Below, piece after piece: positions 36,569 through 62,809 of a DNA stretch of 64,000 bases. Both the position numbers and the translations under genes were made by a program. How positions within the stretch are numbered: the stretch's first letter is position 1; each line of letters starts with the position of its first letter. The stretch is from a virus. The notes beneath the pieces were generated by a model. The model was not told where the DNA came from, did not search any database, and worked only from the letters and a program-made list of their open reading frames with translations. The stretch covers positions 1 to 64,000 of IMG/VR virus record IMGVR_UViG_3300044620_000592; one strand, written 5' to 3'.

Positions 36569-36987
36569 TATTGTTCACCCAATTCAACAGATACATCGTA
36601 ATAAGAGCATGCAGATTTTATATCTCTTCTTACTAACTTTTCAGTATAAGAATTAACAAAGCAAGTGTATGTCTTGAAGTCGTCTGCGGGAGAGAGCTTT
36701 ATTGAAACCGTTACTGTTCCTCTTGTATTTGCGAGGGCTGACAGATAGTCTCGACCTCTTCTCCCATCAACCGTGTGGTCAGTATTATTTGGAAGATATG
36801 TAAAATCTAAACTAAATGTTCTTTTATTCTTTCTAATGTATCTTCTAATTTTTCCTCTTGAAAGTTCAACATCAGATCCGGCCTGCTCAACGGATGAGTT
36901 AAACTTGCGATTATGTTCTGTAATCTCTTGTCCATTAATTGACAATAGATGGATTAGACCTGTCTGCTGGTTTGGAATTGGTGCCAT
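36568..36987 (-). CDS. Distal tail (Dit)-like protein
   Basis: Immediately after the tape measure; size and beta pattern. Confidence 0.6.
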   Translation of the reverse strand: MAPIPNQQTGLIHLLSINGQEITEHNRKFNSSVEQAGSDVELSRGKIRRYIRKNKRTFSLDFTYLPNNTDHTVDGRRGRDYLSALANTRGTVTVSIKLSPADDFKTYTCFVNSYTEKLVRRDIKSACSYYDVSVELGEQ

Positions 36988-39900
36988 TATAGACCTCGAT
37001 TAATTCCGCTATAGGTTGAGATTGTTGTATTATTCAACCCCGCTGCTTTTTGATTTTGCGGAGCAATAGTAACATTATAGTCTTTCATCATTGACTCAAA
37101 CCACTGCTTTTCGCCAATAAAGTTCTCAACATAGATATGGGTTGTTGATGTGGAAGTAGATTGACCATTTACTGGACCAGAGTAAGATGGGGCTTTAGGA
37201 GTATTGAATCTCATGTTGTTCATTGCTTGCAAAGCAGCAATGCCAATGTTCTTAACTGCTGATGCATTGACTACATATTCACCGCCATGAAGAAGAGCAG
37301 GAACACCTTGCGAGCCAAATCCTGGAATTATTCCTCCATTAGCTCTGCTGATCAATCCGCCATTAAAATTACCAATTCCAAAATCATCTTCTTTATTTTT
37401 CATAGCCTTACGAAGAGCAATTCTGGCTAATGCAATCCTTTTCGTAGCAGCAGTAATTCTAGCTTCAATTTCAGGTGTTGAAATACCACCTCTTCCAACA
37501 GAAAATCCAAGTAAATTATTCCTTAATTCATTGGCACTTGTAGTGAAAGGTCTAGAGAACCCAGTAAAGCCTATTCCATTAAATGAATCACCACGCTCCA
37601 ACCTTTGAACAGCATCTGAGTAATCACCAATAATTTCAATACTTGGGTCTATTGATTTCATTGTTTCTGAAAGTTCAGATGCAACCTTAAAAGAATATTT
37701 GCTCATACTTCCAGGATAAATAACCTTTGCACCTAATGGCTTCATTACCATTTCATATATTGCACCAAGAATTCTATTAGAAGCAATTGATGCTAAAGTC
37801 GTTTGTTTTCCACTCGTATCGGCATAAGAATTCCACATTCCAACCTTAAAACCTGTAACGGGATAATGATTTTTATCATACATTTGACCGATTTCAAACG
37901 ACATTGAACTTAATTGTGAAATACCATCATCTAGAATTTGACCAACAGTAATTCTTCCAGAAGTAGCAGTATCCATTACTAGTGATGTTCTCATTTTGCC
38001 TAATAACTCTGGATCAACTACACCAGCTTTCATTAATGATTCAAATGAATCCATATTATTAAAAATAGGAGATTTTGTAAAAAACTTTTTATTAGAATAA
38101 ATTATTGCAGATCTTTGATAATGGTCCGTAAGCGAATTGGTTCTTTGTACAATTTGATTTACTATATTACTTGCATAATTAGGATCAACAATATGCTCTT
38201 GACTTCTTACTGCTTCAAAGAAATTAGACATAGTAAAATCGTTTTCTCTGAAGTCTTTCATCATTAGATCAATATGAGTTTTTCTTTTTGGCATATTTGC
38301 TGGCATATTAAATCCCATGCCTGACATATAATCATAGTGTTGTTCAATATATTTTCTTACAAATTGATTAGGGTTTTTACTATTTAAAAATAAATTTATT
38401 AAATCATCAAACTGCATAGGTCTAACTTGGTTCAAGTTGTCAATAGTTATTGCTGGGTAACTAAAAGCATTTCTATCACCCATAATTTGATCAATTAAAG
38501 TTTTAATTCCAACTTTTGTGCCAGGTTTTATAGCCCTTTTACCATTTGAAAGTATCCTTCCAGAATAGTCTTCAAAATCAATCATTGCTCTTGTAAAACT
38601 TCCAGTACGACCTTTTTTACTTTCTAAAATATTTGAAAGAACATTTTCTTTTATTAATCTATTTTGTTCAACTCTTAAGAAAGATGGGCTTACTAGATAG
38701 TCATTATACATAGAGAGCCAATCTTCACTAGTATTTCCAAAATTAGAGAAAGTTTTTGAAGGGATTAAATAGTCAGATATTTTAGAAATAATCTTTTTCT
38801 GTGGTTTTGGTGTTTTTGGTAGCCCTAATTTATTTCCATACCTTGTACCAAAAATTTTTGAAACTAAGTTTGGATAACTTCTAGTAGTTTGAGCTGGATT
38901 AAACTCCTTTATTGATTTAACCATTGGAGATCTTTCATCAAAATAGTGGAACCATGCTTCGGGACCAACTTTTATAGGCCTGCCAGCAATGTCGACAGTA
39001 GGAGTTGGCGGTTTAATAACCTCTTTTAAATGCCTTGCTTCAGAATAAATTCTGTTCAAAGGTTTGTTATTGTTAATAAATGTCCAATAACTATTTGATA
39101 AAGAATCTTGGACTCTTGGCAAGAAGGTGCTTGGGTTTCTTGGAGCGTTAAGCCCAAAGACAGTATCAGGTCCAATCAATGAAACAGCAGATTGAAGACC
39201 GGCTAAGGTTCTATCCTTACCACTAAGACCTTCATTATGAATATCAAATGTTCTTTCTAGAGGGAAATAAGCGCCAGTGATTGGGTTAAATTCAGTTAGG
39301 GTTTTTGCCAATCCAGCGCCTGCTCTTACCGATGGCAAATCCAACATGGTTGGTTTTCCACTTGGATGAACATGTTCATATTTTGGATTAGTAGCTCTAT
39401 TAAGCATAACTGCAGAACCTGTAAAGCCGGAACCAGTTTGTGAACCATATATCTCAGCCATCAATCGATTACTAGCCCAGTTTTTAGCAGCAACAAAAGG
39501 CTTCTTAACAGCCGACTTTATCTTTCCCCAGATACTCTTTTTCTGCTCTTGCGCTTGTTCTTTTGCCATTTCACCAATGCGTTGCATCTCAAAAGCGGAT
39601 AAAAAATCAGCCTTTCTAAAGTCAGCAGCAGATGCAGGTTTCTTTTCATCAGGCTTCTTGCCCTTTACAAGACCACCCTTGTAGTAGCCAAAAGCGCCTA
39701 CAGCGTCAGCATCAGGAGAATAGGCACCAAAGCTATCAAAATTTCTTGCATTTTTTGGCCCTTTTACTATTTTTTTAAAACTATCAATCCAAATAGGCTT
39801 ACTAAAAGGCATTGTAATCTTGTCGAATCCTTTAGGTTTGTTTCTAAAATAATTAACATAAGCATCTTTAGATGCTTTAGTATTAAATGCCCCCTTGTCG

Positions 39901-42900
39901 GAGCCAAAATTTTTAAATGGATCATATCCAAGTTGACTTATATAACTCATATTTGGGTTAAAGTTTTCTGGGAGAGGGAATTCCTGCTCAGGAGAACGGT
40001 ATTTCTTTAATTTTTCAGGTTTGCCTTTGAAAAGCCCTCTTTCAAGACTTAATAAATGACTTCTATCAAAACCGTGCTTACCTGTACCAAGTGGAGGATT
40101 TAGAAGCGTGGCCCCAGCAGGAAAACCAGGGGAATTTACTGGAACATTTCTTATCCAGCCAAATATTGCAATTCTATTTTTAACAACCATTTGTTGAAGT
40201 TTTGTTGCTAAGTCTGCTGTTTTTCCAAATTCAAGACCTCCATATGCAACCCATGTATCGTCAGCAGTACGCAAACCACCGCCCATCCATCCATCGCTTG
40301 TTTTTGCGCGACCAAACCAATCTGGTTTCTTACCCCAATTTTTTCCTCGGCTAGATTCGCCTTTGCCAATCGTATCCATATAGGCTTCAGTAAAACCACC
40401 ATTGTTTTGTTGCCAATTCCACTCTGCTTGTGCTGGATCTTCTTTTATCTTTTTATCGGGTGCTCTCTCAGGTGCTTTAGATTTACCACCCGTGACCATC
40501 TTCTTCGGTTTCTTAATAGCACCACCCTTTGCAAAAGAATCAATCATTCCACCATTTGCAAAAGGCTTTGGCTTATATGTTCCTTGGTTGATTTGTTGCA
40601 TCATTCCCCAGCCGTACTTGTTAACGGCTGAGTTTCTTACAACAAATTCACCACCATGAAGAATTGCTGGTATACCTTGCTGTACTGGGCCTTCTGTTGG
40701 GCCGCCCTTTGAGTATGGCAACATACCGCCCATTTCATAAAGTTTATATCCGTCATACCCTTCACTTCTGGAACCGGTGTTATAAGCATTCCTAACCATC
40801 GTAAGAATTCTTGAATTCTTCGTTTGCTTTATTGCAGGGTTTTCTGTAAGGAATTTTTTAAACTTATTAGCGGATGAATCGACTGGGGGTTTTGTGAAAA
40901 TTGTAAATGCGTCTGTAAGATAATCAACTAATAGATTTCTATCAGCATTGCGATAATTAGCAAACATAACGCGAGCCAGTTGATTTGGAGTAACTTTACC
41001 TTTTTTAAGATTATTAAGACCTGTTTCATTACCGGTTCCTCCCCCAGTGCCAGTTCCACCAGCGCCAGCTCCAGATCCACCAGCGCCAGTTCCACCACCA
41101 CCGCTACCACCGCTACTGCTAGACCCACCCGCACCAGCAGGGTTTACAATGTCTTGATAGGCTGTATATGTCGTTAGAAGTTTGGAGAAAGCTTCACTAT
41201 TTGTATCAATAACTGTTGTTAAAGTTTGTGAAAGGCCTGTGTACTTTCTTGTTAAGGCATCAATACTTGCGTCAATTGTCTTGCTCCAAATCCCAGTAGG
41301 ACCAAAAGGATTATTTTCAGTAAGTGTTTTGCCAATTGCTGCAAGAGAAGATGTCAAAGGACCAGAAGCATTAACTCCAAGTTGACCTAATGCGCCACCA
41401 AAGGATTCTGAAAAAACTGTTCCCATACTGTTAGCAATAGATTTTGCTCCAACAAAACCATTACCACCATCAATTAACTGATTGAGCATTGTGTTGAATT
41501 CTTCAGCAGTGGTTGGAGGGAATTGTGTAATCTTCTTTGCAGCCTCTGTAAAGGACTTAATCATTTCATCAAAGTACTTGGAAGCATTTTCTTTTGCTTC
41601 CTTGATTGAATCAATCATCACCTTACGGTTTTCTTCAGCAAGCTCCTTTACGCGCTCATCTCTAATTACACCAATACTCTTAGTATCTTCTGTGTCTTGC
41701 CTTGCCCCCGCATCGGCAATTGCTCTTGCTTCATCAATTTGCCCAGCATAAACTGCCATCGCATAATTACGTCTAGTATTAAGACGGTTAAGGGCTCTTT
41801 GCTCTTCGGCTTCTCTAAGTTTGTTTTGGTATTCTTGCTCTTTTGTAAGTTTTTCTTCAGCTTTTGCAACATCCTCAATTTTTTTAATTTGAGCATCATA
41901 AATTAAAAGAGATGCTTCTTTTTGATCTTTCAACGAGTTTGTTATAGATTCAACAACAGCAGTCATTGCATCCTTAATACGGCTTGCAATTTCTTCTTGG
42001 ACTTCTTTCTTGATGTCTTTTAGCGCTTGAGCTGCTCTCTTTGCTAATTCCTTAGCGCCTTCATCAGCGCCTTCAGATAAACCTTCACCAGTTGCATTGG
42101 CAATTTGCTCTTGCATTGGGTCTGTATCAACCTCAACATTATCGTCTTTCTTGCCCTTGCCGCCTAGTGTGACTTTTCCTTTTGAAGCATCAATACCGCC
42201 CTTCTTTAAACCACCAAGTTTGTTTTTGATACCCTTAGCAGATTTATCAATAAGGCCATTAACAGCACCTGTTGCTTTATCAACTGTGCTATTGACAACG
42301 CTAGTTGCTGAATCGACCATTCCTTTTGCGCCATTTACTACGCTTCTAAATTTATTATTAATACCTTTAAATTTGTCACCAATTCCAAAAGGTAGCATTG
42401 ATGCGAGTTTTAATACTCCAGTTATTGGCCAAACTAGATATTCAATCATCCCTTTAGCAAGAAGGCCAATAAGGCTAACAACTCCCTTTACAAGACCACC
42501 AGCAAGGCTGACTATAACTTTAAATCCAATTGCAAAAGCATTAACAAAAAATTCAGCAGCAAAAGCTACAGCAGCCATTAAGAAAGAGAATGCTTTCTTC
42601 CAATTACCTTGGAATAGCGATACAACTGCTCCAACAATGTTTATAATCATATAAAGGTATGGCTTAATGAACTTCTCAACAATCATTTTGAAAACATTAG
42701 CTACAAACTTAAAGACTACTGCAATACCAGAGAATGCTTTACCAAGACCTTGGACAGCACCTTCTGAGCCTTTTGCTCCGTTTCCAAAATGAGCAAACAA
42801 GTCAATAATAGGGCGGACAAGTTCAAGAACTGCATCTTTAACAGTAGTAAATGCCTCTTTAACAGTTTTAATTCCAGAAGATCCCGCTTTCTTAAAACTG

Positions 42901-45900
42901 TCTAGATTCTTCATTACAAGCATTACAGCAACGCCGATTGCAAGAATTATAATTCCAATACCAGAAGCGATAAGTGTTAACTTCATTATCTTCAGAGCAG
43001 CTGTCCCAAGATTTGTTGATGTTACAAAACCTTTCATCGCAGCAGACATTCTTGCAAAGAATCTTGGCGCTTCAACGCCAGCAGCAGCATGCTGCATTCT
43101 TAATGCAAGCATTGCATCTTTAGCGCCTTTTACACTCTTCTTGTATCCTTCTATTGGAGCAGTTGCAAGACCCTTGGCTGTACCGCCAAGTTCTTTTATT
43201 CTGTCGGGAGCAGCTTCTCTTGATCTTCCTACTGCTTCTGCGACTTGAGCAGCTCTTCCTTTAATTCCACCTCTGTAGATATCCGATGCTCTGTCAGCAG
43301 TAATTTCTCTGCCCTTATACATATTTTGCCCAGTGAATACATCAAGATCTAAATTTTTTCTACTAAGCGTTCTCTTGGCTAATGTTCTCTTTTCAAGAGT
43401 CTCTCTAGTATCCTCATAAGCCTGCAGAGCATCTTTCTCTCCAGTGGTCATTCTTCTAAAACGACCACTCGCTCCTCTGATACCGGCCGCTCCTGAAGTA
43501 ACACCAGATGCCTGCAGAGCGACTGCCTCCTGCACCATGTCGCCTACGGACTTTGAGAATCGACCACCAGGACCTCTACCACCTGTAGTTGGATAACCTT
43601 TAGCCAACAAACTTTGTTTGATCATCTCTTCAGTTTTTCTTAGGATTTCTCTTTCATCTGCATCCATTGGCCCCATACGACCACTGGGGCCTCTTACTCC
43701 CGCAGCGCCAGACATAACCCCAGTTTTCTGAAGCTTCAAAGCAGATTTCATTTGGGATGTAAAAGAAGGTTTTGCAGCAACAGGTGCGCCAGTAATTGGG
43801 TCAATAACTGAAGTACCAGTAATTGGAGCTAATGATTCTCTAACTGCTTTTTGAGCATTAACTTGTCTAGACAATGCCATTGGAGCAGTGCTTTGCTCTT
43901 GCAAAGCACCAGTCATTAATCCAATTTTATTTGCGAGTCTTCCAACCGGACCTTCACCAGATGCAAGAGTTGCAAGGAATGTCGCAAACTTCCCATTTGT
44001 ATTAACAACGGTATCACCAACAACAGTTAATGGCTTAGATAGTCTAAGCATTGCTGATGAACTAGCAACAGCTTCAACTGACAATGTTTTAAGGGATGGC
44101 AAAAAGGAGAGAAGGACTTTCGCAACGCTACCCATTGCAAGTCTAAACTGACCGAAGACAAAGATGAGTGGTCCAATTGCAGCAGTTGCTCCAGCAACAA
44201 GAAGAGCAACAGTTGATATTAATTGCTTAGTTCTACCATCAAGACTAGACCATGCAGTAATCAACTTATTTGAAATATCTGTAATTTTTTCTATTGCAGG
44301 TCTTGCCCCTTTGATGATATCAGTAGCAAAAGCTTTAAAGTTGTTTTTAAGAATTGATATTTGTGTGTCAAGAGAACCTAATGCGACATCTAATTCTCTT
44401 TGTGCAACCTCAGCAGCGTTGGCTGCGCCTGCAAGTTGAATAAAGCTAGCTCGACCAGCCTCCGTATTAACTTGACCAATTAAGTCTACTCCTTCTGTTC
44501 TTTGAGCTTTTACAATCTCATCAGTAACAGCTTGTCTAACTTTTCTAGCTTCTTTAACTTGCGCTAGAGTTACTCTACCAAAACCATCAATTTGCGCCGT
44601 TTCTCCCTCTTTAATCTGAGCTGTTGCAATTCTGGCAATAATTCCAATATCTTGATAACTCTTAATAAGAGGAAGGTTTGCATTAGATGACTTATTAGCC
44701 GAAATTATTGCTTGGTTTGCAAATCCTTGGAGTTTCTTTTCTGCAGACTCTAAACTTACAGTATTTGATTTAAGAACTTCATCAAAGTCTGCCATCTGAG
44801 CAAGTGCAACTTCCATTCTTGGACCTTGACGAACACCAAAAACTTTTGCAAAGAACTCCATTGCGCCTTCTTGACCTGCTGCGCTGTTCTTTAGTTCATT
44901 AAAACCATCAATAAGAGATTGAATAGCATCAAGACCAGTACCTTTAATTGCGGTAAAGTTAGTATCATACTCTTTTGATAATCTTCTAAACAAGTCAGCA
45001 TTTTGCTTTGTTGGAGCAACAAGTCTCTGCAAAGAAACTTTAATTGAGTTAGCGGATGCTCCAACTTCAAAACCAGCAGCCTTCATTGGAGCAAGCATTC
45101 CAGCAAGTTCAGTCATTGAAAGACCAAATGAGGAACCAGCAGCAGCGACTTCTGGGAAAGCATCTCCCAAGTCTCTTAGAGTCAATGCAGTTACGTTTTC
45201 AACAGAGTTGAAAAGATTTAATTGAGCAGTTGCTGCGCCGATTGCAGCAATTTCTCTTTCTTCAAAGGTCATCTTTCTAGATTGACCCGACATTTGCATA
45301 GCTCGCTGAGCTTGGAAGTAAAGGCTTTGTACAAGATCTTTGGCTGCACCAATATCCATGTCACCAAGTTTTTCAGTAACAGCAGCTAATTCAGTAATCT
45401 TTGCAATGCTCTCTTCGCTTTGGATACCTAATTCAGCAAAGTCTCCTGCCAATCCGACTGTTAAACTCTTGGCAAGACCGAATCTATTGCTAATTTTTCC
45501 AAGAGATTTATCAAGCCTGTCATAGCGATCAACCATTCCTTGAAGTTGCTTAGATTGCTCCTTAGTTGCCCCAACAAGGTCAACATTCATCTTCTTCGCA
45601 GCGGCCTCAAGATTTGGTGCAACATTTTCAAGAACTTTATTTAATCTTACAAATTCTTTATCAACTGACACAAGAGCTTGGAGACCGTATCTTGCAAAAC
45701 CAACCATTGGGGTTGTAAGACCAATAATAAGACTTCGACCAACGAACTGCGCATCCTTGCCAAGACGCTTCTGCTCTTGCGCTACGCTCTTTAAGTCCTC
45801 TGTAAGACCTCTTAGACGAATTCCCTTTAAAGCAGACTCATAAGCCTTAAGGTCGGAAACAGCGGCTTTTCTGAATGAGGCAGATGCTCCAGTAGCAAAC

Positions 45901-46190
45901 TTAAACTCTGTGCCCATTCCGGCAATTTCTTTTCTTACCCTTCCAATCTCATTGGTAAGAACAGAGTTGTTTCTAGAAAGTTGATCAATTGTTTTAGCGT
46001 GAGCTTTTAATGATGAGTCAGCAGAGCCTACAGCAGCAGAGAGAGCCTTGCTTCTTGCGCTAAGGTTGTTCATTGGGGCTACAGAACCCCTTACAACAGC
46101 ATTGAGCTGTTGCATAGCATTGCTAAGCTTATAAACATCCGCTACGCCCGCAGTCGCTACGGCAATTACAATATCTACATCACTAGCCAT
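36987..46190 (-). CDS. Tape measure protein with C-terminal Rpf-like and unknown domains
   Basis: 3067 aa, Ala-rich helical repeats, TP901-like core (GLSMTELAGMLAPM..AGF), hydrophobic segments, follows the tail chaperones. Confidence 0.92.
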   Translation of the reverse strand: MASDVDIVIAVATAGVADVYKLSNAMQQLNAVVRGSVAPMNNLSARSKALSAAVGSADSSLKAHAKTIDQLSRNNSVLTNEIGRVRKEIAGMGTEFKFATGASASFRKAAVSDLKAYESALKGIRLRGLTEDLKSVAQEQKRLGKDAQFVGRSLIIGLTTPMVGFARYGLQALVSVDKEFVRLNKVLENVAPNLEAAAKKMNVDLVGATKEQSKQLQGMVDRYDRLDKSLGKISNRFGLAKSLTVGLAGDFAELGIQSEESIAKITELAAVTEKLGDMDIGAAKDLVQSLYFQAQRAMQMSGQSRKMTFEEREIAAIGAATAQLNLFNSVENVTALTLRDLGDAFPEVAAAGSSFGLSMTELAGMLAPMKAAGFEVGASANSIKVSLQRLVAPTKQNADLFRRLSKEYDTNFTAIKGTGLDAIQSLIDGFNELKNSAAGQEGAMEFFAKVFGVRQGPRMEVALAQMADFDEVLKSNTVSLESAEKKLQGFANQAIISANKSSNANLPLIKSYQDIGIIARIATAQIKEGETAQIDGFGRVTLAQVKEARKVRQAVTDEIVKAQRTEGVDLIGQVNTEAGRASFIQLAGAANAAEVAQRELDVALGSLDTQISILKNNFKAFATDIIKGARPAIEKITDISNKLITAWSSLDGRTKQLISTVALLVAGATAAIGPLIFVFGQFRLAMGSVAKVLLSFLPSLKTLSVEAVASSSAMLRLSKPLTVVGDTVVNTNGKFATFLATLASGEGPVGRLANKIGLMTGALQEQSTAPMALSRQVNAQKAVRESLAPITGTSVIDPITGAPVAAKPSFTSQMKSALKLQKTGVMSGAAGVRGPSGRMGPMDADEREILRKTEEMIKQSLLAKGYPTTGGRGPGGRFSKSVGDMVQEAVALQASGVTSGAAGIRGASGRFRRMTTGEKDALQAYEDTRETLEKRTLAKRTLSRKNLDLDVFTGQNMYKGREITADRASDIYRGGIKGRAAQVAEAVGRSREAAPDRIKELGGTAKGLATAPIEGYKKSVKGAKDAMLALRMQHAAAGVEAPRFFARMSAAMKGFVTSTNLGTAALKIMKLTLIASGIGIIILAIGVAVMLVMKNLDSFKKAGSSGIKTVKEAFTTVKDAVLELVRPIIDLFAHFGNGAKGSEGAVQGLGKAFSGIAVVFKFVANVFKMIVEKFIKPYLYMIINIVGAVVSLFQGNWKKAFSFLMAAVAFAAEFFVNAFAIGFKVIVSLAGGLVKGVVSLIGLLAKGMIEYLVWPITGVLKLASMLPFGIGDKFKGINNKFRSVVNGAKGMVDSATSVVNSTVDKATGAVNGLIDKSAKGIKNKLGGLKKGGIDASKGKVTLGGKGKKDDNVEVDTDPMQEQIANATGEGLSEGADEGAKELAKRAAQALKDIKKEVQEEIASRIKDAMTAVVESITNSLKDQKEASLLIYDAQIKKIEDVAKAEEKLTKEQEYQNKLREAEEQRALNRLNTRRNYAMAVYAGQIDEARAIADAGARQDTEDTKSIGVIRDERVKELAEENRKVMIDSIKEAKENASKYFDEMIKSFTEAAKKITQFPPTTAEEFNTMLNQLIDGGNGFVGAKSIANSMGTVFSESFGGALGQLGVNASGPLTSSLAAIGKTLTENNPFGPTGIWSKTIDASIDALTRKYTGLSQTLTTVIDTNSEAFSKLLTTYTAYQDIVNPAGAGGSSSSGGSGGGGTGAGGSGAGAGGTGTGGGTGNETGLNNLKKGKVTPNQLARVMFANYRNADRNLLVDYLTDAFTIFTKPPVDSSANKFKKFLTENPAIKQTKNSRILTMVRNAYNTGSRSEGYDGYKLYEMGGMLPYSKGGPTEGPVQQGIPAILHGGEFVVRNSAVNKYGWGMMQQINQGTYKPKPFANGGMIDSFAKGGAIKKPKKMVTGGKSKAPERAPDKKIKEDPAQAEWNWQQNNGGFTEAYMDTIGKGESSRGKNWGKKPDWFGRAKTSDGWMGGGLRTADDTWVAYGGLEFGKTADLATKLQQMVVKNRIAIFGWIRNVPVNSPGFPAGATLLNPPLGTGKHGFDRSHLLSLERGLFKGKPEKLKKYRSPEQEFPLPENFNPNMSYISQLGYDPFKNFGSDKGAFNTKASKDAYVNYFRNKPKGFDKITMPFSKPIWIDSFKKIVKGPKNARNFDSFGAYSPDADAVGAFGYYKGGLVKGKKPDEKKPASAADFRKADFLSAFEMQRIGEMAKEQAQEQKKSIWGKIKSAVKKPFVAAKNWASNRLMAEIYGSQTGSGFTGSAVMLNRATNPKYEHVHPSGKPTMLDLPSVRAGAGLAKTLTEFNPITGAYFPLERTFDIHNEGLSGKDRTLAGLQSAVSLIGPDTVFGLNAPRNPSTFLPRVQDSLSNSYWTFINNNKPLNRIYSEARHLKEVIKPPTPTVDIAGRPIKVGPEAWFHYFDERSPMVKSIKEFNPAQTTRSYPNLVSKIFGTRYGNKLGLPKTPKPQKKIISKISDYLIPSKTFSNFGNTSEDWLSMYNDYLVSPSFLRVEQNRLIKENVLSNILESKKGRTGSFTRAMIDFEDYSGRILSNGKRAIKPGTKVGIKTLIDQIMGDRNAFSYPAITIDNLNQVRPMQFDDLINLFLNSKNPNQFVRKYIEQHYDYMSGMGFNMPANMPKRKTHIDLMMKDFRENDFTMSNFFEAVRSQEHIVDPNYASNIVNQIVQRTNSLTDHYQRSAIIYSNKKFFTKSPIFNNMDSFESLMKAGVVDPELLGKMRTSLVMDTATSGRITVGQILDDGISQLSSMSFEIGQMYDKNHYPVTGFKVGMWNSYADTSGKQTTLASIASNRILGAIYEMVMKPLGAKVIYPGSMSKYSFKVASELSETMKSIDPSIEIIGDYSDAVQRLERGDSFNGIGFTGFSRPFTTSANELRNNLLGFSVGRGGISTPEIEARITAATKRIALARIALRKAMKNKEDDFGIGNFNGGLISRANGGIIPGFGSQGVPALLHGGEYVVNASAVKNIGIAALQAMNNMRFNTPKAPSYSGPVNGQSTSTSTTHIYVENFIGEKQWFESMMKDYNVTIAPQNQKAAGLNNTTISTYSGINRGL

Positions 46191-48774: not shown

Positions 48775-49135
48775 CCACCCTTCTTGTAGTGATTAGATAA
48801 TGATGTAATTTGCCTTTATAGCCCATGTACTTGCGAATGCTTATAATCTCTAATGGTCCAGACTCAAGGACAACCCCGGCTCTATCCACGACATTTTGAA
48901 TCCGATTGTTGTAAGTAATATACTGAGCATCTTGGTGTGAGACATAAAACTCATACTGATCAATGTTGTCAATATATGGCTCAATTCTTCTTTCGCTTCG
49001 CTGGGATTGGAATACCGCAGGTATCGTAGCAGCCTTGCTAAAAGTTATTGTCTTTTGACCAGCAGCATTATTACTGGTTATTTTTTCGTATACATCAATC
49101 TTGTGTACAAATCTTAAATAAGTTTTTGCACTCAT
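48761..49135 (-). CDS. Head-closure (stopper) protein
   Basis: Size, synteny, SPP1 gp16-like beta pattern. Confidence 0.6.
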   Translation of the reverse strand: MSAKTYLRFVHKIDVYEKITSNNAAGQKTITFSKAATIPAVFQSQRSERRIEPYIDNIDQYEFYVSHQDAQYITYNNRIQNVVDRAGVVLESGPLEIISIRKYMGYKGKLHHYLITTRRVVENV

Positions 49136-50046
49136 TAGACAACATAATCCATCACAAACAATGTGTAATCCATAAGCAGAACATCAGCCTCGATGTTCCC
49201 AGTTGTCTCATAGAAAGAGTCTTTCATGTAAACAGTAAGAGCATCCATTTCAACTCTTGTCATGCCATGCATTCTGTATTCCGAATCATTATTCATTGCA
49301 TCGGCAATCAGCAAAGAAGCGGCCTGCTTAACATTGTCGGGAATAAATCTCCAGCCAAAGTTGCCAATAATCTGGTATGTAGAGTCAAGATCCCATTTGC
49401 CCAAAACAAAGACTTGCTCTGGCAGGGATGTCTTCCTAAAGCGGATGTTATAGGTTGTATCAAAATTGAAAGGCTGTCTTACCTTCTCAACTTTATCAAC
49501 CGTTTCACTAAGAAGGATTAATTCATCGCTTGTTCCAAAGTCTTGGATAACAGATACTAGATCAGAAACCGGAATTGGGAGTCTCATGCTCGAATAGTTA
49601 TTGCCATTCATCAGCAAGGTTTTATTTTCATAATATTCAAAAGACTGTCCACAGTAGGTGTCAATTGTATTTTTTACCCTTTTGGCAATTGCCTCAAACT
49701 TGGACTCAAATTCATTCTCAAGCTCTGGATATTCATCAAAGAACTCAGCTGCCGTAATGTAGGGGGTAAAGACATTGATGTACTTAGATTGGGTGTATGT
49801 CACCCCAGAAACCGCATAGGTGAAATCAGCCTTGTAACGCCCTGAGGAATTTAAAATATAGATTCCAGAGCTTTGTTGACCAAAGGTGATTGTATAAACC
49901 CCTGTGCCTGTTCTGGTGGCGCTGGTTGGTCCTGAAACCAAATCCCCAAGCTCATGATACAGGGATACCGATACCAGATTTGATGTTGGGTCACTTGGTA
50001 GCGTTAGCGTAAGGGTTTTAGATGTGTTGATCTTTACTTCATCCAT
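49135..50046 (-). CDS. Head-to-tail adaptor with N-terminal Ig-like domain
   Basis: IDTYCGQSF...GW..IPDNVKQAASLL...TGNIEADVLL. Confidence 0.75.
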   Translation of the reverse strand: MDEVKINTSKTLTLTLPSDPTSNLVSVSLYHELGDLVSGPTSATRTGTGVYTITFGQQSSGIYILNSSGRYKADFTYAVSGVTYTQSKYINVFTPYITAAEFFDEYPELENEFESKFEAIAKRVKNTIDTYCGQSFEYYENKTLLMNGNNYSSMRLPIPVSDLVSVIQDFGTSDELILLSETVDKVEKVRQPFNFDTTYNIRFRKTSLPEQVFVLGKWDLDSTYQIIGNFGWRFIPDNVKQAASLLIADAMNNDSEYRMHGMTRVEMDALTVYMKDSFYETTGNIEADVLLMDYTLFVMDYVV

Positions 50047-54868: not shown

Positions 54869-56392
54869 CTATGCGTTAAGAATGGTAAGAACAGTTCCAT
54901 CACTACCAGACACTCCACTAAGTGTACCACCAGAAACGCTTGTTGTCACGCTTACTGGCTGGGTTTCTGTTAGGATAAGAATTCCTCCACCACCGCCAGA
55001 TCGACCATTGGCACCTGCTGTTGTTGATCCATTTGTTCCGGAAGTTCCTGCAGATCCTGCAGAGCCTCCAGCGCCACCAGATACAGGAAAATGCCCAGTG
55101 TGTCTTGCTGAACCAGCATAGCGATAATCATCATTGCTATGAACACCTTGTTGGTCGTGCCTTCCTCTAGCCTGATGTCCTCCATCTACAGGGTTTCCTT
55201 TAAAATCTACATGGTCTGGGCAGTTGTCATGCTCATGATAATAAACTTCAAAAATTGCTCCGCTTGTGTGAGCATGGTTGTAGGCTGTCCCCCCGCTGTG
55301 ACCGAATGGACCTCCGATTGTATGGTTTAAACCATTTTGATGGAAATAATCAGAAGCCGAAGCTCGCGGATAATGTGTCGTTGAAGCATGCCCATAGGCG
55401 GGAGAAGAACCCCCATGATGATTAGCAGGGTAAAGACATGTAGCGCCATGATGAGTTGTTGTCCAATAACCAAATGCATGATTTGATTGTATAGCGGAGA
55501 CAGGAGTGGTCGGTAATGCAGGGGCGGGAGTGCTGGCATGTGCCCCATGTACACCATCACCAGTTCTGTAATGGGCAATGTTGTCAGTAGTGTAAGAAAG
55601 ATGTTCAGTTGGAGCTGCTGACCCCGGACTTCCTGCTGCTCCATTTGTTGCGCCCGTTCCGGTAGCAGATGAGCCTCCTGTTGAAGCATTTGAACCTCTA
55701 GACATGATAGTACCAGAGCCAGTAATTAATTTGGCAATGACAACAACAACACCGCCCCCTCTTGCTCCTAATCCGCCTGCTGCGGCTGGAGGCGTTGAAC
55801 CAGCAACGCCGTTTGTTCCAGGGGTTCCTGCAGATCCAGGACCGCCAGGTGCCAGTGCATTTCTATTAAGAGTGCCTGCCCCCCCTGGACCTCCTGAAGT
55901 CGCACCAGAGCCATTAGCAGCAGGAGTAACTGTTCCAGCAGCACCAGTTTCTCCACCTGCACCACCTGTGAAAGCATTGAAGTTTCCAGATGCACTTACA
56001 TGACCACCATTTAAAATATTTTCAACATAAGCGCGAACGCTTGAGGAAACTTGTGATGCTGTGTATGTTACACCAGCAGCATTTCCTCCAATTGAGTTTG
56101 TTGTACTTGTTGCAAGAGGAGTTGTTCCAGCAACTGTGCCAGTATTAACAGTTGCTCCAGTATCAATTCCAATAGTTCCATTAAGAGTCAATGTGTTTTT
56201 TACAAAGACTTTAAAACCATTTGTGTTAAGATGAACACTATTGTTTACTGTTAAATTATCGTAATACATATCTCTAGTAAGAGATGTATTTGAGGCAATT
56301 ACAACGGTGCCATCTTGACCGCCTCCATACACAGAGTCATTACCAATTCTTTGAACTTTTGCCGGTGAGTTGTATCTTTCTATGCCAGTCAT
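54869..56392 (-). CDS. Gly-rich virion/fibre protein with His-rich insertion
   Basis: N-terminus paralogous to 56394..57143; GGAGG/GxxG tracts; 24 His in a ~180-aa central segment. Confidence 0.75.
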   Translation of the reverse strand: MTGIERYNSPAKVQRIGNDSVYGGGQDGTVVIASNTSLTRDMYYDNLTVNNSVHLNTNGFKVFVKNTLTLNGTIGIDTGATVNTGTVAGTTPLATSTTNSIGGNAAGVTYTASQVSSSVRAYVENILNGGHVSASGNFNAFTGGAGGETGAAGTVTPAANGSGATSGGPGGAGTLNRNALAPGGPGSAGTPGTNGVAGSTPPAAAGGLGARGGGVVVVIAKLITGSGTIMSRGSNASTGGSSATGTGATNGAAGSPGSAAPTEHLSYTTDNIAHYRTGDGVHGAHASTPAPALPTTPVSAIQSNHAFGYWTTTHHGATCLYPANHHGGSSPAYGHASTTHYPRASASDYFHQNGLNHTIGGPFGHSGGTAYNHAHTSGAIFEVYYHEHDNCPDHVDFKGNPVDGGHQARGRHDQQGVHSNDDYRYAGSARHTGHFPVSGGAGGSAGSAGTSGTNGSTTAGANGRSGGGGGILILTETQPVSVTTSVSGGTLSGVSGSDGTVLTILNA

Positions 56393-57143: not shown

Positions 57144-57502
57144 TATGACTCCTCAACTCCAAAGATTGTCACATTCAATGCAGAGTTTGCAGAGCATAGG
57201 AATGTAATCTGATCACTTGTTGTATTGCTTGCCGTGTTACCATTATTGATTAAAACCATCGAGCAGTTAAAAGCAAGAGTTTCATTAGCATTAATAGTAA
57301 TATTGCTTAAGATATCGTGAGTATTCGCCTCAGCAACATTGAGGGGTTTTAAACGGATTGTTGCAGTTCTTGCAGATGCTGTTGTATTTGTAATAAGAAT
57401 TTGTTTAACGATTGTGGTTGTGTTAAGAGGGACAGTATAAGCAACAGCAGTAACTGTTGATATTTGTGTTGGGCCAGCTAATCTTTTCTGAATTACAGCC
57501 AT
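57143..57502 (-). CDS. Small beta-sandwich virion protein
   Basis: YTVP...VKQILITNTT...GVEES; paralog of 62834..63166. Confidence 0.7.
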   Translation of the reverse strand: MAVIQKRLAGPTQISTVTAVAYTVPLNTTTIVKQILITNTTASARTATIRLKPLNVAEANTHDILSNITINANETLAFNCSMVLINNGNTASNTTSDQITFLCSANSALNVTIFGVEES

Positions 57503-58317: not shown

Positions 58318-59415
58318 CTAGAAAGTACCGCCATCTACTGTATCAGACCATGCAGGTACACCTGCTACAACTTTTAAGAACTGACCTGTTGTTCCGATTC
58401 CAAGATTAGAAAGGGTGTTCCCAGATGAGGAGTAAAGTAAATCACCAGTTGTGTAAGAAGTAAGACCAGTACCACCAGATGTTGAAGCAATTGCTGTGCC
58501 ATTCCATACACCAGTCACAATAGTGCCAAGTGTAGTCAAACTTGAGTATATGACTCCTGACCCTAAAGTTGTATTTGAAAGAACTGAAGTTCCAGCGATT
58601 TCGTAAACTTTTCCTGCAACGAGATTTAAATCTTCAGATGAAGTCCATGCGTCTGTTGCATCAACCCAGTTGAAGGTTTTGTTTGTTGCGCCAAGAATTG
58701 TAATACCAGCGCCATCAGCCGTTGTATCTGTTGGAGTAGCAACATTTGCAAGAACAATATTCTTATCCTCAACAACCAGAGTTGCGGTATTAAGAGTTGT
58801 TGTATTCCCATTAACAATCAAGTCTCCTGTAACGGTAAGTGTATTTCCAATTGTTACATCATCTGGAAGACCAATTGTTACAGCACCAGTCCAAGGACCA
58901 GTGCCAGTGCCAGAGACAGTAACTTCATTTGATGTTCCTGTGACTGATGTAACAGCAGCTGTTCCAAGATCGCTAATTTGTGAACCAGTAATTGAAATCG
59001 TTGTATTACCAGCAGCAGTTAGACGACCATCTCCTTGTACAGTGAATGTAGCAACAGTATTTGCACTACCATAAGAACCGACTGTGACTGCTGTATTGCC
59101 AAGAGTAACTCCAGAAATTGCATTGTCAACATAAAGTTTTGTTGCAGCATGAGTGTTTGCTGTTGGAGTAGGTACAAGAACAAGACCATTGAAAGTCTTA
59201 TTTCCTGATACTGTTTGAACACCAGAGAGGGTCAAATATGCGCCTGCACCACCAATTGCCTCTACTGTTGTAGCAGTGCCTCCTGCACCGCCTGAACCTT
59301 TACCGTAGTAAAGAACATCATCTACTTCGTTATATGCAAGCTCTGCATTCTCTAACGAACCTGGAGCCCCAGCATTACCGGAGCCTCTTCTTTTAATTCT
59401 AATTGTATTTGCCAT
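58318..59415 (-). CDS. Tail fibre-like protein
   Basis: MANTIRIKR...PGSLENAELAYN; HAATKLYVD; GGTGLTSY..GDLLY; ends DGGTF. Confidence 0.78.
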   Translation of the reverse strand: MANTIRIKRRGSGNAGAPGSLENAELAYNEVDDVLYYGKGSGGAGGTATTVEAIGGAGAYLTLSGVQTVSGNKTFNGLVLVPTPTANTHAATKLYVDNAISGVTLGNTAVTVGSYGSANTVATFTVQGDGRLTAAGNTTISITGSQISDLGTAAVTSVTGTSNEVTVSGTGTGPWTGAVTIGLPDDVTIGNTLTVTGDLIVNGNTTTLNTATLVVEDKNIVLANVATPTDTTADGAGITILGATNKTFNWVDATDAWTSSEDLNLVAGKVYEIAGTSVLSNTTLGSGVIYSSLTTLGTIVTGVWNGTAIASTSGGTGLTSYTTGDLLYSSSGNTLSNLGIGTTGQFLKVVAGVPAWSDTVDGGTF

Positions 59416-59690
59416 TAATAATTTCCTCCGTCTAATAGCGTGTTTGCAATTGAGTGAACATGGTCACTTCTGCTAAACAGGGTTGACACCCCAGAAGAAG
59501 CTGCTCTTGCAATATCCGCTGGATCTCCACCACTTAAAAAAGGCTCACCACCCAAAACGATTGTTGCGGGGGCGGCCAAAACTGTTGTAACCTCAGATGA
59601 CTGAACACTAAGCGCAGTGATATCTGATTCTGAAATTGTTACATTGGTAATATCACCAGACGTAACAGTTACATAGGTAACTTCACCCAT
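59415..59690 (-). CDS. Fibre-associated virion protein
   Basis: SRSDHVH motif, ends LDGGNY; likely start MGEVT. Confidence 0.6.
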   Translation of the reverse strand: MGEVTYVTVTSGDITNVTISESDITALSVQSSEVTTVLAAPATIVLGGEPFLSGGDPADIARAASSGVSTLFSRSDHVHSIANTLLDGGNY

Positions 59691-60015
59691 GATTAACCTC
59701 TCTTGAAACAACTGCTGTTCCACTTATCAAAGTGGTTACAATTGAACCGTTAAGCTCTTGCAAGTCATAAATATATGAACCAGCATCTATGTTAGATGTT
59801 TGCTCTGGAGTTAAACTAAATGTTAAAACACCGTTAGCAGCATTTGTAATTGCCGTTGTGAATGTTACAGCAGTATCTGAAGACTTACTCTTCCTAAGTT
59901 GAGCAGTATATACACGCCCTGTTATATTAATAGCAGTATTACTACTATTTCTAATCCTTAATTCGTGGAGATATGTATCTCCTTGATATATACTAATTTC
60001 TCTTTTAGCAGCCAT
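59683..60015 (-). CDS. BppU-like / Ig-fold baseplate-fibre adaptor
   Basis: IYQGDT...NITG....AQLR...G.LTFSLT..QT......YIYDL. Confidence 0.65.
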   Translation of the reverse strand: MAAKREISIYQGDTYLHELRIRNSSNTAINITGRVYTAQLRKSKSSDTAVTFTTAITNAANGVLTFSLTPEQTSNIDAGSYIYDLQELNGSIVTTLISGTAVVSREVNHG

Positions 60016-60017
60016 CG

Positions 60018-60098
60018 TTAGCAGTCACATTCCTCGCAACCACAATCGCATTGGTCAACACACTCACAACCGCAAGCACATGTTTTGTTTCTAGACAT
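60018..60098 (-). CDS. Cys-rich metallothionein-like micro-protein (26 aa, not in ORF track)
   Basis: AGGAG RBS 5 nt before ATG; MSRNKTCACGCECVDQCDCGCEECDC, 9 Cys; fills the gap between endolysin and the next gene. Confidence 0.7.
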   Translation of the reverse strand: MSRNKTCACGCECVDQCDCGCEECDC

Positions 60099-60110
60099 AG
60101 AATCTCCTAA

Positions 60111-60644
60111 TTAAGCAGCACCAGGCTTAGGCAATGCTCTCCAAGCTGCTTCAAACTTTGCAGCGTCTTTTGCCATCTCTGGAGAAAGCTCTAAATGTAA
60201 CCACTTCCCTCCAAAACTACCAGCATTATCAGACTCGGTAAAAATTTTTACCCCAGCCTCATTCTCACCTCTTGAGCACCTAAATCCGCGACCATACCCT
60301 TGATTCTTGTCCTTAGGGTTTGCATCAAATGCATAGTCATGAATTTCTTCAATACCTAACTCTTTAGTGTACTTAATGAACCAGTTCCACATTTCGACTC
60401 CAACTTTACGGTCTTTGTAGCCGATGTCGCATGCTGCACCAGTTGCGTGAACGCTCAGGAATTTCTCCATGCCTGGGTCGCCAATCTTTTTACCAGCGGT
60501 CTTGGAATTTCTCATCAATCTTGGGACATAAATCCCCATGTTGGAAGTTTTCCATCTTTTTCCACAAAGTTCAACTAACTTCTGGGTTCCAGGCTGTGCG
60601 CCCTTACCATCAAAACTTGGATAATAGCTATACTTTCTTGGCAT
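60111..60644 (-). CDS. Endolysin, Zn peptidase (M15-like)
   Basis: R...SVHATGAACD...WLHLE (H-x6-D...H ligands); next to holin; no cell-wall-binding domain seen. Confidence 0.75.
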   Translation of the reverse strand: MPRKYSYYPSFDGKGAQPGTQKLVELCGKRWKTSNMGIYVPRLMRNSKTAGKKIGDPGMEKFLSVHATGAACDIGYKDRKVGVEMWNWFIKYTKELGIEEIHDYAFDANPKDKNQGYGRGFRCSRGENEAGVKIFTESDNAGSFGGKWLHLELSPEMAKDAAKFEAAWRALPKPGAA

Positions 60645-61304: not shown

Positions 61305-62809
61305 TATTTTCTCCTTGATCGACTGCTACCTCGATCTCCATTTCCAGAACCACCATCTCCTGATGGTCCACCAGCACCTCCACCTGATGGCGCAGAACCG
61401 CCTCCAGAGGGCATGGGAGCCGTTGTAATCGTTGTTAACACCGTTGTTACGGCAATCAGGGCTCTTCTTGCTTTTACATCTATCTCAGAACCTGTAGGAA
61501 CATAATCATCAAGCCCCTCTCCAAAGATGTCAATTTCTGTTTCAAATTCTTCTTTGATGTCATTTGGGGCATTCGTCAGGGCTTCAACAAGGGCATTCTC
61601 TTGCTCTAACGACAAGTCAGAAACTGTTATCTCAGCAAAAATTTCCCCGGCTTGCTCTGGAGTGATGCTCTCCAAGACTTTTTCACTTGTCGCAAGTTCA
61701 CTTGCTTGATCTGAAGACAGTTCAGAGTCAAGAATTTTATCAACAATATTTGCTACTTCTTCTTGCGATACTGAATCTGAATCAATAGCACTTATAACTT
61801 CAGTAACCTGCTCATCATTTAGCCTTTCATTTGAATTAAGTATCTCAATAACTTCTTGAACAATAGCTGCTGTTGGAGCAATTGTTGTTGTCGTAGTTGT
61901 AGTAGGTGCTACTGTTGTAGAAACGACTGTGGTTGTTGTAGTTGTTGGAATTGGCACAGTTGTTGGAGCAATTGTTGGAAATACAAAAACACTTGTAGTT
62001 GTAGGCGGTATAGTTGTTGTTGATGAAGTTGTTGTGCTTGTGGTTGTTGTGGTTGATGTTGTACTTGTGGTTGTCGTAGGGATTGGCAAAGTCAATCCAG
62101 ATACCTCATTGCTCCAACCCGAATAGACCGGAATAGAGTCGTTATCAGCACGAACTTTAAACTTATATTCAGTATTTGGTGCAAGATCCTCAACGACTGT
62201 AGATGTTTGAATGGATGACGCTGCCCAGCCAGTAAGCCAATTGTCATTTGAGAAAAAAACAGCATATCTTTCCACCTGTACATTGGATTGTTCTGGGGCA
62301 TCCCATGATAAATAAACTTTGTTTTGGTTTGTAGATGTGACTATAAGATTCTGTGGACTATTCAAATATGGAGCAATAGTGGTTGTAGTTGTACTGCTCG
62401 TTGTGGTGCTTGAAGTTGTTGTTGATGGAATTTGAGTTGGTACCGAGTCGGTTTCAATATCGTAGAAATTTCCATACCACCTATTAGGGTCTCCACAGCA
62501 AACACCTGTGCGTAAACGATAGGTTCCAGATTCTTGCACATTATAAGAAATATAGGAATCTAAACCAAAATGGTCATCATTCGCAGCTAACAGCCCGTCA
62601 TTGCTGTCGTAAAGCCAAAACATGCTGTCAATCCCGTATTGCTGAGCGGTTGCTCGCACGGTGAAGGTTGTTCCAGATTCAAGTTGGAAATAAAAATCTC
62701 CAGCACTTTCAGTTCTAAAAGTCTCGGCTTTGGCGGGGCTTGAAAAGAAGGATAAGATTAATATAGGTGCTAATAACCATGAGCCTTTTTTAAATCTTAA
62801 TCTTCTCAC
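61304..62809 (-). CDS. Secreted/surface protein: signal peptide, PPC-like domain, FN3, Thr-rich linkers, acidic helical domain, C-terminal anchor
   Basis: MRRLRFKK...PAKA signal; DSMFWLYD...AANDD; LSWDAP...LAPNTEYKFKVRA (FN3); poly-Thr tracts. Confidence 0.8.
   Translation of the reverse strand: MRRLRFKKGSWLLAPILILSFFSSPAKAETFRTESAGDFYFQLESGTTFTVRATAQQYGIDSMFWLYDSNDGLLAANDDHFGLDSYISYNVQESGTYRLRTGVCCGDPNRWYGNFYDIETDSVPTQIPSTTTSSTTTSSTTTTTIAPYLNSPQNLIVTSTNQNKVYLSWDAPEQSNVQVERYAVFFSNDNWLTGWAASSIQTSTVVEDLAPNTEYKFKVRADNDSIPVYSGWSNEVSGLTLPIPTTTTSTTSTTTTTSTTTSSTTTIPPTTTSVFVFPTIAPTTVPIPTTTTTTVVSTTVAPTTTTTTTIAPTAAIVQEVIEILNSNERLNDEQVTEVISAIDSDSVSQEEVANIVDKILDSELSSDQASELATSEKVLESITPEQAGEIFAEITVSDLSLEQENALVEALTNAPNDIKEEFETEIDIFGEGLDDYVPTGSEIDVKARRALIAVTTVLTTITTAPMPSGGGSAPSGGGAGGPSGDGGSGNGDRGSSRSRRK

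Follow-up and report, generated by a model that had tools for sequence, protein, structure and literature searches.

A nine-cysteine micro-gene of uncultured freshwater phages may encode a virus-only, phytochelatin-like metal-cluster peptide

Very short metallothioneins are found among the fungal Cu-thioneins of approximately 25 residues, and the beta domain of mammalian metallothionein (MT) holds nine cysteines. Nine thiolates are the ligand count of a three-metal M3S9 cluster, and classical metallothioneins do not usually have strongly acidic filler between their cysteines. Cd binding has been reported for (Glu-Cys)n-Gly peptides that contain 8-20 Cys and are made on ribosomes (PMC4292183). 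In mycobacteria, leaderless short ORFs encoding polycysteine act as Cys-responsive attenuators (bioRxiv 10.1101/834739), and 'metallothionein' auxiliary genes are mentioned in passages of viral metagenome surveys (PMC13317609, PMC12917443).

Here we describe a 26-codon micro-gene from a window that comprises the first 64 kb of a 105,669-bp IMG/VR record, complete according to CheckV. Its product shares with metallothioneins a very small size, a Cys content of about 35% in C-x-C, a lack of aromatic residues in the window copy and a lack of predicted secondary structure. In contrast to metallothioneins, its filler is Asp/Glu rather than Lys/Ser/Thr, it is virus-encoded and it has no Pfam or PDB match. 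With the phytochelatins and their (Glu-Cys)n-Gly analogues EC8-EC20 (PMC4292183, PMC9917255) it shares the alternation of acidic residues and Cys, interspersed Gly and a length in the range of the Cd-binding analogues. However, natural phytochelatins are made enzymatically with gamma-Glu bonds, whereas the cysteines of the phage peptide keep a fixed but uneven spacing, with gaps of x, x3 and x2, implying a defined fold rather than a simple repeat. The virus-borne auxiliary genes of the surveys (PMC13317609, PMC12917443) offer a likeness in idea, namely phages carrying metal-sequestering genes; the survey passages concerned are without sequences, and the nine-Cys family matches no Pfam metallothionein model.

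The micro-gene and its neighbours

The micro-gene was found on the minus strand at 60018..60098, and is read as an ATG (60098..60096), 25 sense codons and a TAA stop (60020..60018), giving the product MSRNKTCACGCECVDQCDCGCEECDC. An earlier note on this DNA had left out the strand, which is also that of every large ORF in the window. That note had proposed an unannotated gene with an AGGAG ribosome-binding site, filling the gap between an endolysin gene and a fibre gene, and the sequence agreed on each point. The Shine-Dalgarno AGGAG lies at 60104..60108 (minus strand), 5 nt before the ATG. The gap is that between a LAS-type zinc endolysin gene (60111..60644), whose stop is 12 nt ahead of the ATG, and a 110-aa gene of the tail-fibre module (59683..60015), whose start is 2 nt past the micro-ORF stop. 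The peptide also proved to be as the note had described it: nine Cys are found within the last 20 of its 26 residues (35% Cys, all in C-x-C runs), in two similar half-motifs, C-x-C-G-C-E-C and C-x-C-G-C-E-E-C, and there are no aromatic residues. Approximately six residues lie ahead of the first Cys, and the peptide is very acidic.

Cys richness by itself was not beyond chance in the window. Four other open frames contained 7-10 Cys per 20 residues, at 61835..62020 (+), 57353..57457 (+), 56096..56251 (+) and 44146..44226 (-), each off-frame or antisense to a long gene. These frames are by-products of Thr/Ala/Gln-rich coding and not genes. The micro-ORF was the only Cys-rich frame of the window within an intergenic gap, and what sets it apart from a chance frame is that purifying selection has kept it in many viral contigs besides this one; a chance ORF was rejected on that conservation and not on Cys richness. 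A structured RNA or a terminator in place of a gene was rejected as well. When the window sequence alone was folded (59985..60125, minus strand), the minimum free energy was -28.1 kcal/mol compared to a mean of -29.0 kcal/mol for shuffled controls (z 0.27), and neither a promoter nor a terminator was found near the micro-ORF on the coding strand.

The upstream gene (60111..60644, minus strand) encodes a 177-aa protein that we accept as a presumed endolysin, a LAS-type (M15/VanY-like) zinc peptidoglycan peptidase, in agreement with the earlier note, which had called it a zinc endolysin. The Peptidase_M15_4 match was weak. Residues H66, D73 and H150 were invariant in the family alignment, and in a profile-profile alignment the S-V-H-x-x-G-x-A-x-D (H-x6-D) and W-x-H motifs fell on those of VanY-type proteins; the 99% probability of that alignment came largely from the shared PG_binding_1 domain, to which some 177-aa homologues are fused. 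The PDB entries that best matched the AF2 model (pLDDT 84) were zinc LD-peptidases, namely VldE, LdcB and DacB, with E-values that were weak (about 0.01-0.05) but coherent. Domain shuffling was observed among such endolysins: in L235:3518-4261 and L258:1710-2519 the C-terminal PG_binding_1 domains are 76% identical, and the N-terminal catalytic domains are unrelated (a 177-aa-type LAS domain versus VanY).

The downstream 110-aa gene (59683..60015, minus strand; family A) is the first gene of the tail-fibre module. Its product matched phrog_1084 (E 8e-23) and phrog_3304, the latter described as 'L-shaped tail fiber protein assembly', and weakly BppU_N. A second virion gene that accompanies the micro-ORF elsewhere, that of the 303-aa head-to-tail adaptor (family B), lies in the window at 49135..50046 (minus strand) and matched phrog_442. 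The window adaptor is 52% identical to the product of the gene directly after the micro-ORF in loci L258 and L241, and Streptomyces phages have distant homologues that carry a head-to-tail adaptor annotation.

Family members, selection and genomic contexts

IMG/VR was scanned with degenerate DNA patterns. A motif-specific pattern returned 50 contigs and a looser one 65 contigs, together amounting to 38 distinct coding sequences and 33 distinct core peptides; a pattern of nine TGY alone was swamped by poly-Cys low-complexity frames. Both patterns demand the Cys codons, so that the invariance of Cys is partly circular, and the contigs are not independent samples. In the 29 distinct coding sequences of the first set, each of the nine Cys columns mixed TGT and TGC roughly evenly. 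Among the same 29 sequences pS was 0.81, near saturation, compared to a pN of 0.15, giving an overall pN/pS of approximately 0.2 (pairwise, ignoring phylogeny); at the positions left free by the search patterns pN/pS was 0.65. The earlier note had suggested a search of related contigs for kept Cys spacing and synonymous-biased variation, and both were found.

The family product has 23-32 residues and consists of a short basic N-terminus, with 2-12 residues preceding the first Cys, and a 20-residue core of consensus C-x-C-x-C-x-C-x3-C-x-C-G-C-[ED]-x-C-x-C, with filler mostly of Asp, Glu and Gly. An [RK]-x-K was present before the first Cys in 31 of the 33 peptides, R1 and K3 being near-invariant. 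Asp and Glu made up approximately 48% of the free filler positions, where hydrophobic, aromatic and basic residues were rare. Across the family the 363 filler positions included two Tyr and one Phe, and His was common at one position. The stop codon directly followed the last Cys in all 50 matches of the first pattern, which did not demand a stop. Every member had a start signal, either GAGG, GGAG or AGGAG 5-9 nt upstream or a start codon that shares bases with the stop of the gene before it, as TAATG or TGATG; this second type was found in 25 of 51 loci.

Loci were also sampled through the neighbouring genes, which does not presuppose the Cys motif. The micro-ORF was intact in 24 of 24 loci with a 177-aa homologue followed by a 110-aa homologue (19 distinct contigs, the window's own included). 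Loci sampled in this manner had an intact ORF with the full set of nine Cys, a decayed one or none, and no intermediates were seen. Decay was found in one sub-lineage (L270-L276; for example L270:1330-1520, L274 and L276 compared to L277), in which ATA stands where the ATG was and an internal stretch of 50 nt is missing; the promoter on the flank, the terminal TGC-TGA and the adaptor gene's ribosome-binding site are kept. The deletion is a lineage marker and not an assembly error because at least two sequence variants share it.

These findings, namely the synonymous excess, the intact frame and the translation signals across diverged copies, indicate that the micro-ORF is a real protein-coding gene under purifying selection, and one among the most strongly constrained short ORFs that one could ask for. 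The idea that readthrough or a frameshift adds the micro-ORF to the C-terminus of the endolysin, or to the N-terminus of the next gene's product, was rejected, the frame relation to both neighbours varying between contigs. As the earlier note had supposed, the micro-gene lies below the length cut-off of standard gene callers, which miss it; the exact window peptide was absent from a collection of 15 billion predicted proteins. It adds a clean example to the hidden micro-proteome of phages.

The micro-ORF was found in at least five arrangements across viral contigs. In the first, which is the window's type, it lies between the endolysin gene and the 110-aa gene, and in the second between an endolysin gene with PG_binding_1 and the adaptor gene. 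In the third it follows an endolysin gene, an SNase nuclease gene and a promoter, and in the fourth an unrelated gene and a TATAAT 6-7 nt before the ATG, the adaptor gene being downstream in both. In the fifth it lies between an SNase gene and the gene of a small membrane protein, on unrelated contigs of 44-52% GC without the other families (L289:1960-2465, GC 52%, and L295:9549-9980, GC 44%). The L289/L295 variant has 23 residues and no basic N-terminus, and it overlaps the stop of the SNase-type nuclease gene. Phages of the third type also have a nuclease of this family (about 51-53% identity) encoded ahead of the micro-ORF, and nuclease and micro-ORF may travel together. In all contigs except L289 and L295 the next gene is a family A or B virion gene 0-34 nt downstream, and in most contigs the downstream start lies 0-12 nt after the micro-ORF stop. 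The ATG of the adaptor gene (L304-L376) or of the micro-ORF (L277, L287 and L290) comes just 6-10 nt after the end of an extended -10-like box (TGTTATAAT or TGGTACAAT), and in L304-L376 this box is placed about 20 nt upstream of the adaptor start; the adaptor gene, or the micro-ORF where present, may be read from a leaderless or nearly leaderless mRNA.

The neighbours of the micro-ORF are also found without it. Phages with a 177-aa endolysin at 82-98% identity on a different backbone had no micro-ORF anywhere in the genome. Four sister genomes (90-100% complete) have a VanY-type zinc endolysin gene, approximately 30-45 nt, the 110-aa gene, a gene of about 100 aa and a fibre gene, an order that matches the window's except that the micro-ORF is lacking. 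Among the best 80 family A loci, 55 had a LAS endolysin gene immediately upstream, and the micro-ORF was present in eight of these 55 and missing in 47; it was not directly upstream of family A in 72 of the 80. Among the 77 usable of the best 80 adaptor loci, the micro-ORF was directly upstream in none, and the promoter abuts the start codon instead. In the slot between endolysin and 110-aa gene the micro-ORF occurred only with endolysin types without PG_binding_1 (U1/U3-type), and endolysin type and micro-ORF may be exchanged as a cassette.

Endolysin, adaptor and fibre gene all occur without the micro-ORF, and the peptide is therefore dispensable for each of them. The loci compared show an accessory gene that is dispensable, mobile between genomic slots and lost in some lineages, and this is how a 'moron'-like gene with a self-contained function behaves. 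The earlier note had taken absence or disruption in close relatives as grounds against the gene; it is intact in 65 contigs, missing from sister phages and decayed in one sub-lineage.

The metal-cluster reading and its alternatives

The nine-Cys family is not described in any library searched. The window peptide had no match in Pfam, NCBIfam or PHROGs, even at E = 10, and a profile of 25 family members matched no PDB chain at E up to 10. In a HMMER search of 1.84 billion representative proteins the family profile found four clusters only, of 29-44 aa and all stand-alone, with no fused or longer homologues. The longer relatives in the 15-billion-protein collection are unnamed or labelled 'hypothetical protein'; one member of 31 aa is NCBI-sourced and lies on a 94-kb contig. 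No cellular or prophage copies were found in 185,579 prokaryote genomes, one per species, and no copies among 50,697 cultured-phage records (tblastn, low-complexity filter on), where the 1.3-kb region around the micro-ORF had no DNA match either. The ESM Atlas returned sub-threshold unnamed clusters only, and a literature search on phage cysteine-rich micro-proteins found nothing relevant. An AF2 model of the peptide made with the family alignment had a pLDDT of 63 and no secondary structure, and Foldseek with this low-confidence model gave no match; the absence of secondary structure fits ligand-dependent folding, being uninformative in itself. In the collections searched, then, the family appears virus-only and stand-alone, and by its sequence we would class it as a new family of minimal size, metallothionein- or phytochelatin-like and found only in viruses.

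Metal coordination is inferred here from composition, that is, from the Cys content, the C-x-C motifs and the alternation with acidic residues. The low mass, the approximately 30% Cys in C-x-C or C-x-x-C and the scarcity or lack of aromatic residues are those of metallothioneins, and in composition the peptide agrees with the minimal phage metallothionein proposed in the earlier note; in relationship it does not, profile and fold searches giving no match to any Pfam metallothionein family or solved structure. The peptide would have no hydrophobic core and would fold only around metal ions. Its nine thiolates would hold a metal-thiolate cluster, for example of three divalent ions or several Cu(I), formed as in a metallothionein domain or as in an alpha-linked analogue of the (Glu-Cys)n phytochelatins. 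Such cluster formation, taken as such, is judged reasonably likely. Its expression would fall late in infection, alongside that of the lysis and virion genes, and in the infected cell it would buffer or sequester metal in a self-contained manner instead of serving the endolysin or the fibre as a dedicated partner, a reading to which we give a probability of roughly 0.45. The fuller proposal is put forward tentatively: a virus-only, gene-encoded, phytochelatin-like metal-cluster family may serve as a mobile accessory that controls Zn, Cu, Fe or thiol chemistry late in infection of a probably actinobacterial cell. If metal binding is true, the family would provide a metal-cluster scaffold that is both new and minimal, its members would rank with the smallest known proteins of the metallothionein type, and lytic freshwater phages would manipulate metal or thiol homeostasis.

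The near-constant place of the micro-ORF upstream of a virion gene, often coupled to the endolysin gene, could point to a partner-specific role. In most contigs the micro-ORF directly follows the endolysin gene, its start often overlapping the endolysin stop. The endolysins ahead of it are of seven sequence types and two catalytic families, all with LAS motifs or VanY matches, and in the slot before family A they are restricted to the U1/U3-type. This arrangement would suit a dedicated zinc chaperone, reservoir or inhibitor, co-translated with the adjacent LAS endolysin and loading or withholding its catalytic Zn. However, the closely similar 177-aa endolysins on another backbone, the VanY-type endolysins of the complete sister genomes and 47 of the 55 endolysin/A slots among the best 80 family A loci do without the peptide, and there are micro-ORFs that follow a nuclease gene or a promoter of their own and are not next to any endolysin. 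An endolysin partner is thus unlikely, and the supply of metal to the zinc endolysin or to the fibre, which the earlier note had considered, is disfavoured, sister phages keeping both endolysin and fibre gene without the micro-ORF.

The gene on the other side invites a similar argument. With the exception of L289 and L295 a family A or B gene always follows closely, and several phages have the micro-ORF as first cistron after a promoter that elsewhere adjoins the adaptor gene directly. This might be expected if the peptide were part of the virion or helped to assemble the tail module, for example as a plug or cement that is stabilised by metal or disulfides and works with the adaptor or the fibre base. 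In contrast, both families are widespread without the micro-ORF directly upstream (77 of 77 usable adaptor loci and 72 of 80 family A loci in the best-80 samples), the decayed sub-lineage has kept its adaptor gene, and in L289 and L295 the micro-ORF precedes the gene of a small membrane protein. We regard such a role in the virion or its assembly as improbable.

A thiol- or charge-based role that needs no stable metal clusters, be it as redox buffer, as effector with a disulfide knot or as small inhibitor of a host defence or enzyme, seems about equally improbable. Phage genes for fitness or counter-defence are typically accessory, mobile and found where modules join, as this one is, and the strong acidity of the peptide would be in keeping with such a role. 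However, the peptide has no signal peptide for export and so would stay in the reducing cytoplasm, the odd number of invariant Cys misfits a closed disulfide knot, and there is no likeness to any described family.

A still less probable role is that of a cysteine-sensing upstream ORF, at whose nine Cys codons ribosomes would slow if charged tRNA-Cys were scarce, tuning the coupled virion genes. Such attenuators exist in Actinobacteria (bioRxiv 10.1101/834739), and the host is plausibly actinobacterial. The likeness to the mycobacterial polycysteine ORFs lies in a tiny, Cys-codon-rich ORF that heads an operon in a probable actinobacterial setting and is sometimes apparently leaderless, as in the copies with TATAAT shortly before the ATG, and the short distance to the downstream start in most contigs would permit coupling. 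The mycobacterial ORFs, in contrast, act through an RNA duplex that sequesters the next ribosome-binding site, and their peptide sequence is not functional. The fold of the window alone showed no structure beyond the shuffled controls and none sequestering the downstream ribosome-binding site. Selection in the phage family is not confined to the Cys codons: R1, K3, the Asp/Glu/Gly filler, the basic N-terminus and the exact Cys spacing are conserved, with the pN/pS of 0.65 at pattern-free positions. Moreover, the downstream genes are not cysteine-metabolism genes, and relatives express the same genes without the ORF. If true, cysteine sensing would be a new kind of phage late-gene control.

Ranthipeptide cores have alternating Cys and Asp/Glu, which the phage peptide resembles. 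A precursor of a modified peptide, also raised in the earlier note, with for example ranthipeptide-like Cys-Asp/Glu thioethers made by host enzymes or by the halogenase/oxygenase genes 4-10 kb downstream, is nonetheless very unlikely: no radical SAM maturase gene was found, PF04055 being absent from the complete 105,669-bp genome in a search whose positive controls all responded, there is essentially no leader ahead of the first Cys in the window copy or across the family, and in other phages the adaptor gene comes so directly after the micro-ORF that the window's block of fibre and tailoring genes has no place between them.

The carrier phage

The carriers of the family are a group of uncultured freshwater long-tailed phages. 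The window encodes a 3067-aa tape-measure protein (36987..46190, minus strand), which implies an exceptionally long non-contractile tail and a siphovirus. The cultured relatives of the adaptor are Streptomyces and Rhodococcus phages only, and because of these relatives and the frequent leaderless-looking promoters an actinobacterial host is suggested, as an inference only. Beyond the window, five tRNA genes are found in the genome at 79982..98234 (Gln, Arg-TCT, Ile-TAT, Lys and Leu-TAA); none of the phage tRNA genes of the complete genome is for tRNA-Cys.

In the tail-fibre module, the 110-aa gene is followed in the window by a gene of approximately 100 aa at 59415..59723 (minus strand; a relative lies at L380:2038-2337), and in relatives the same order is found, the 110-aa gene, then the same gene of approximately 100 aa, then the fibre genes. 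The product of this second gene ends in a conserved LLxDGGNY tail, and in every relative inspected the gene either adjoins the fibre gene that comes next or overlaps with it.
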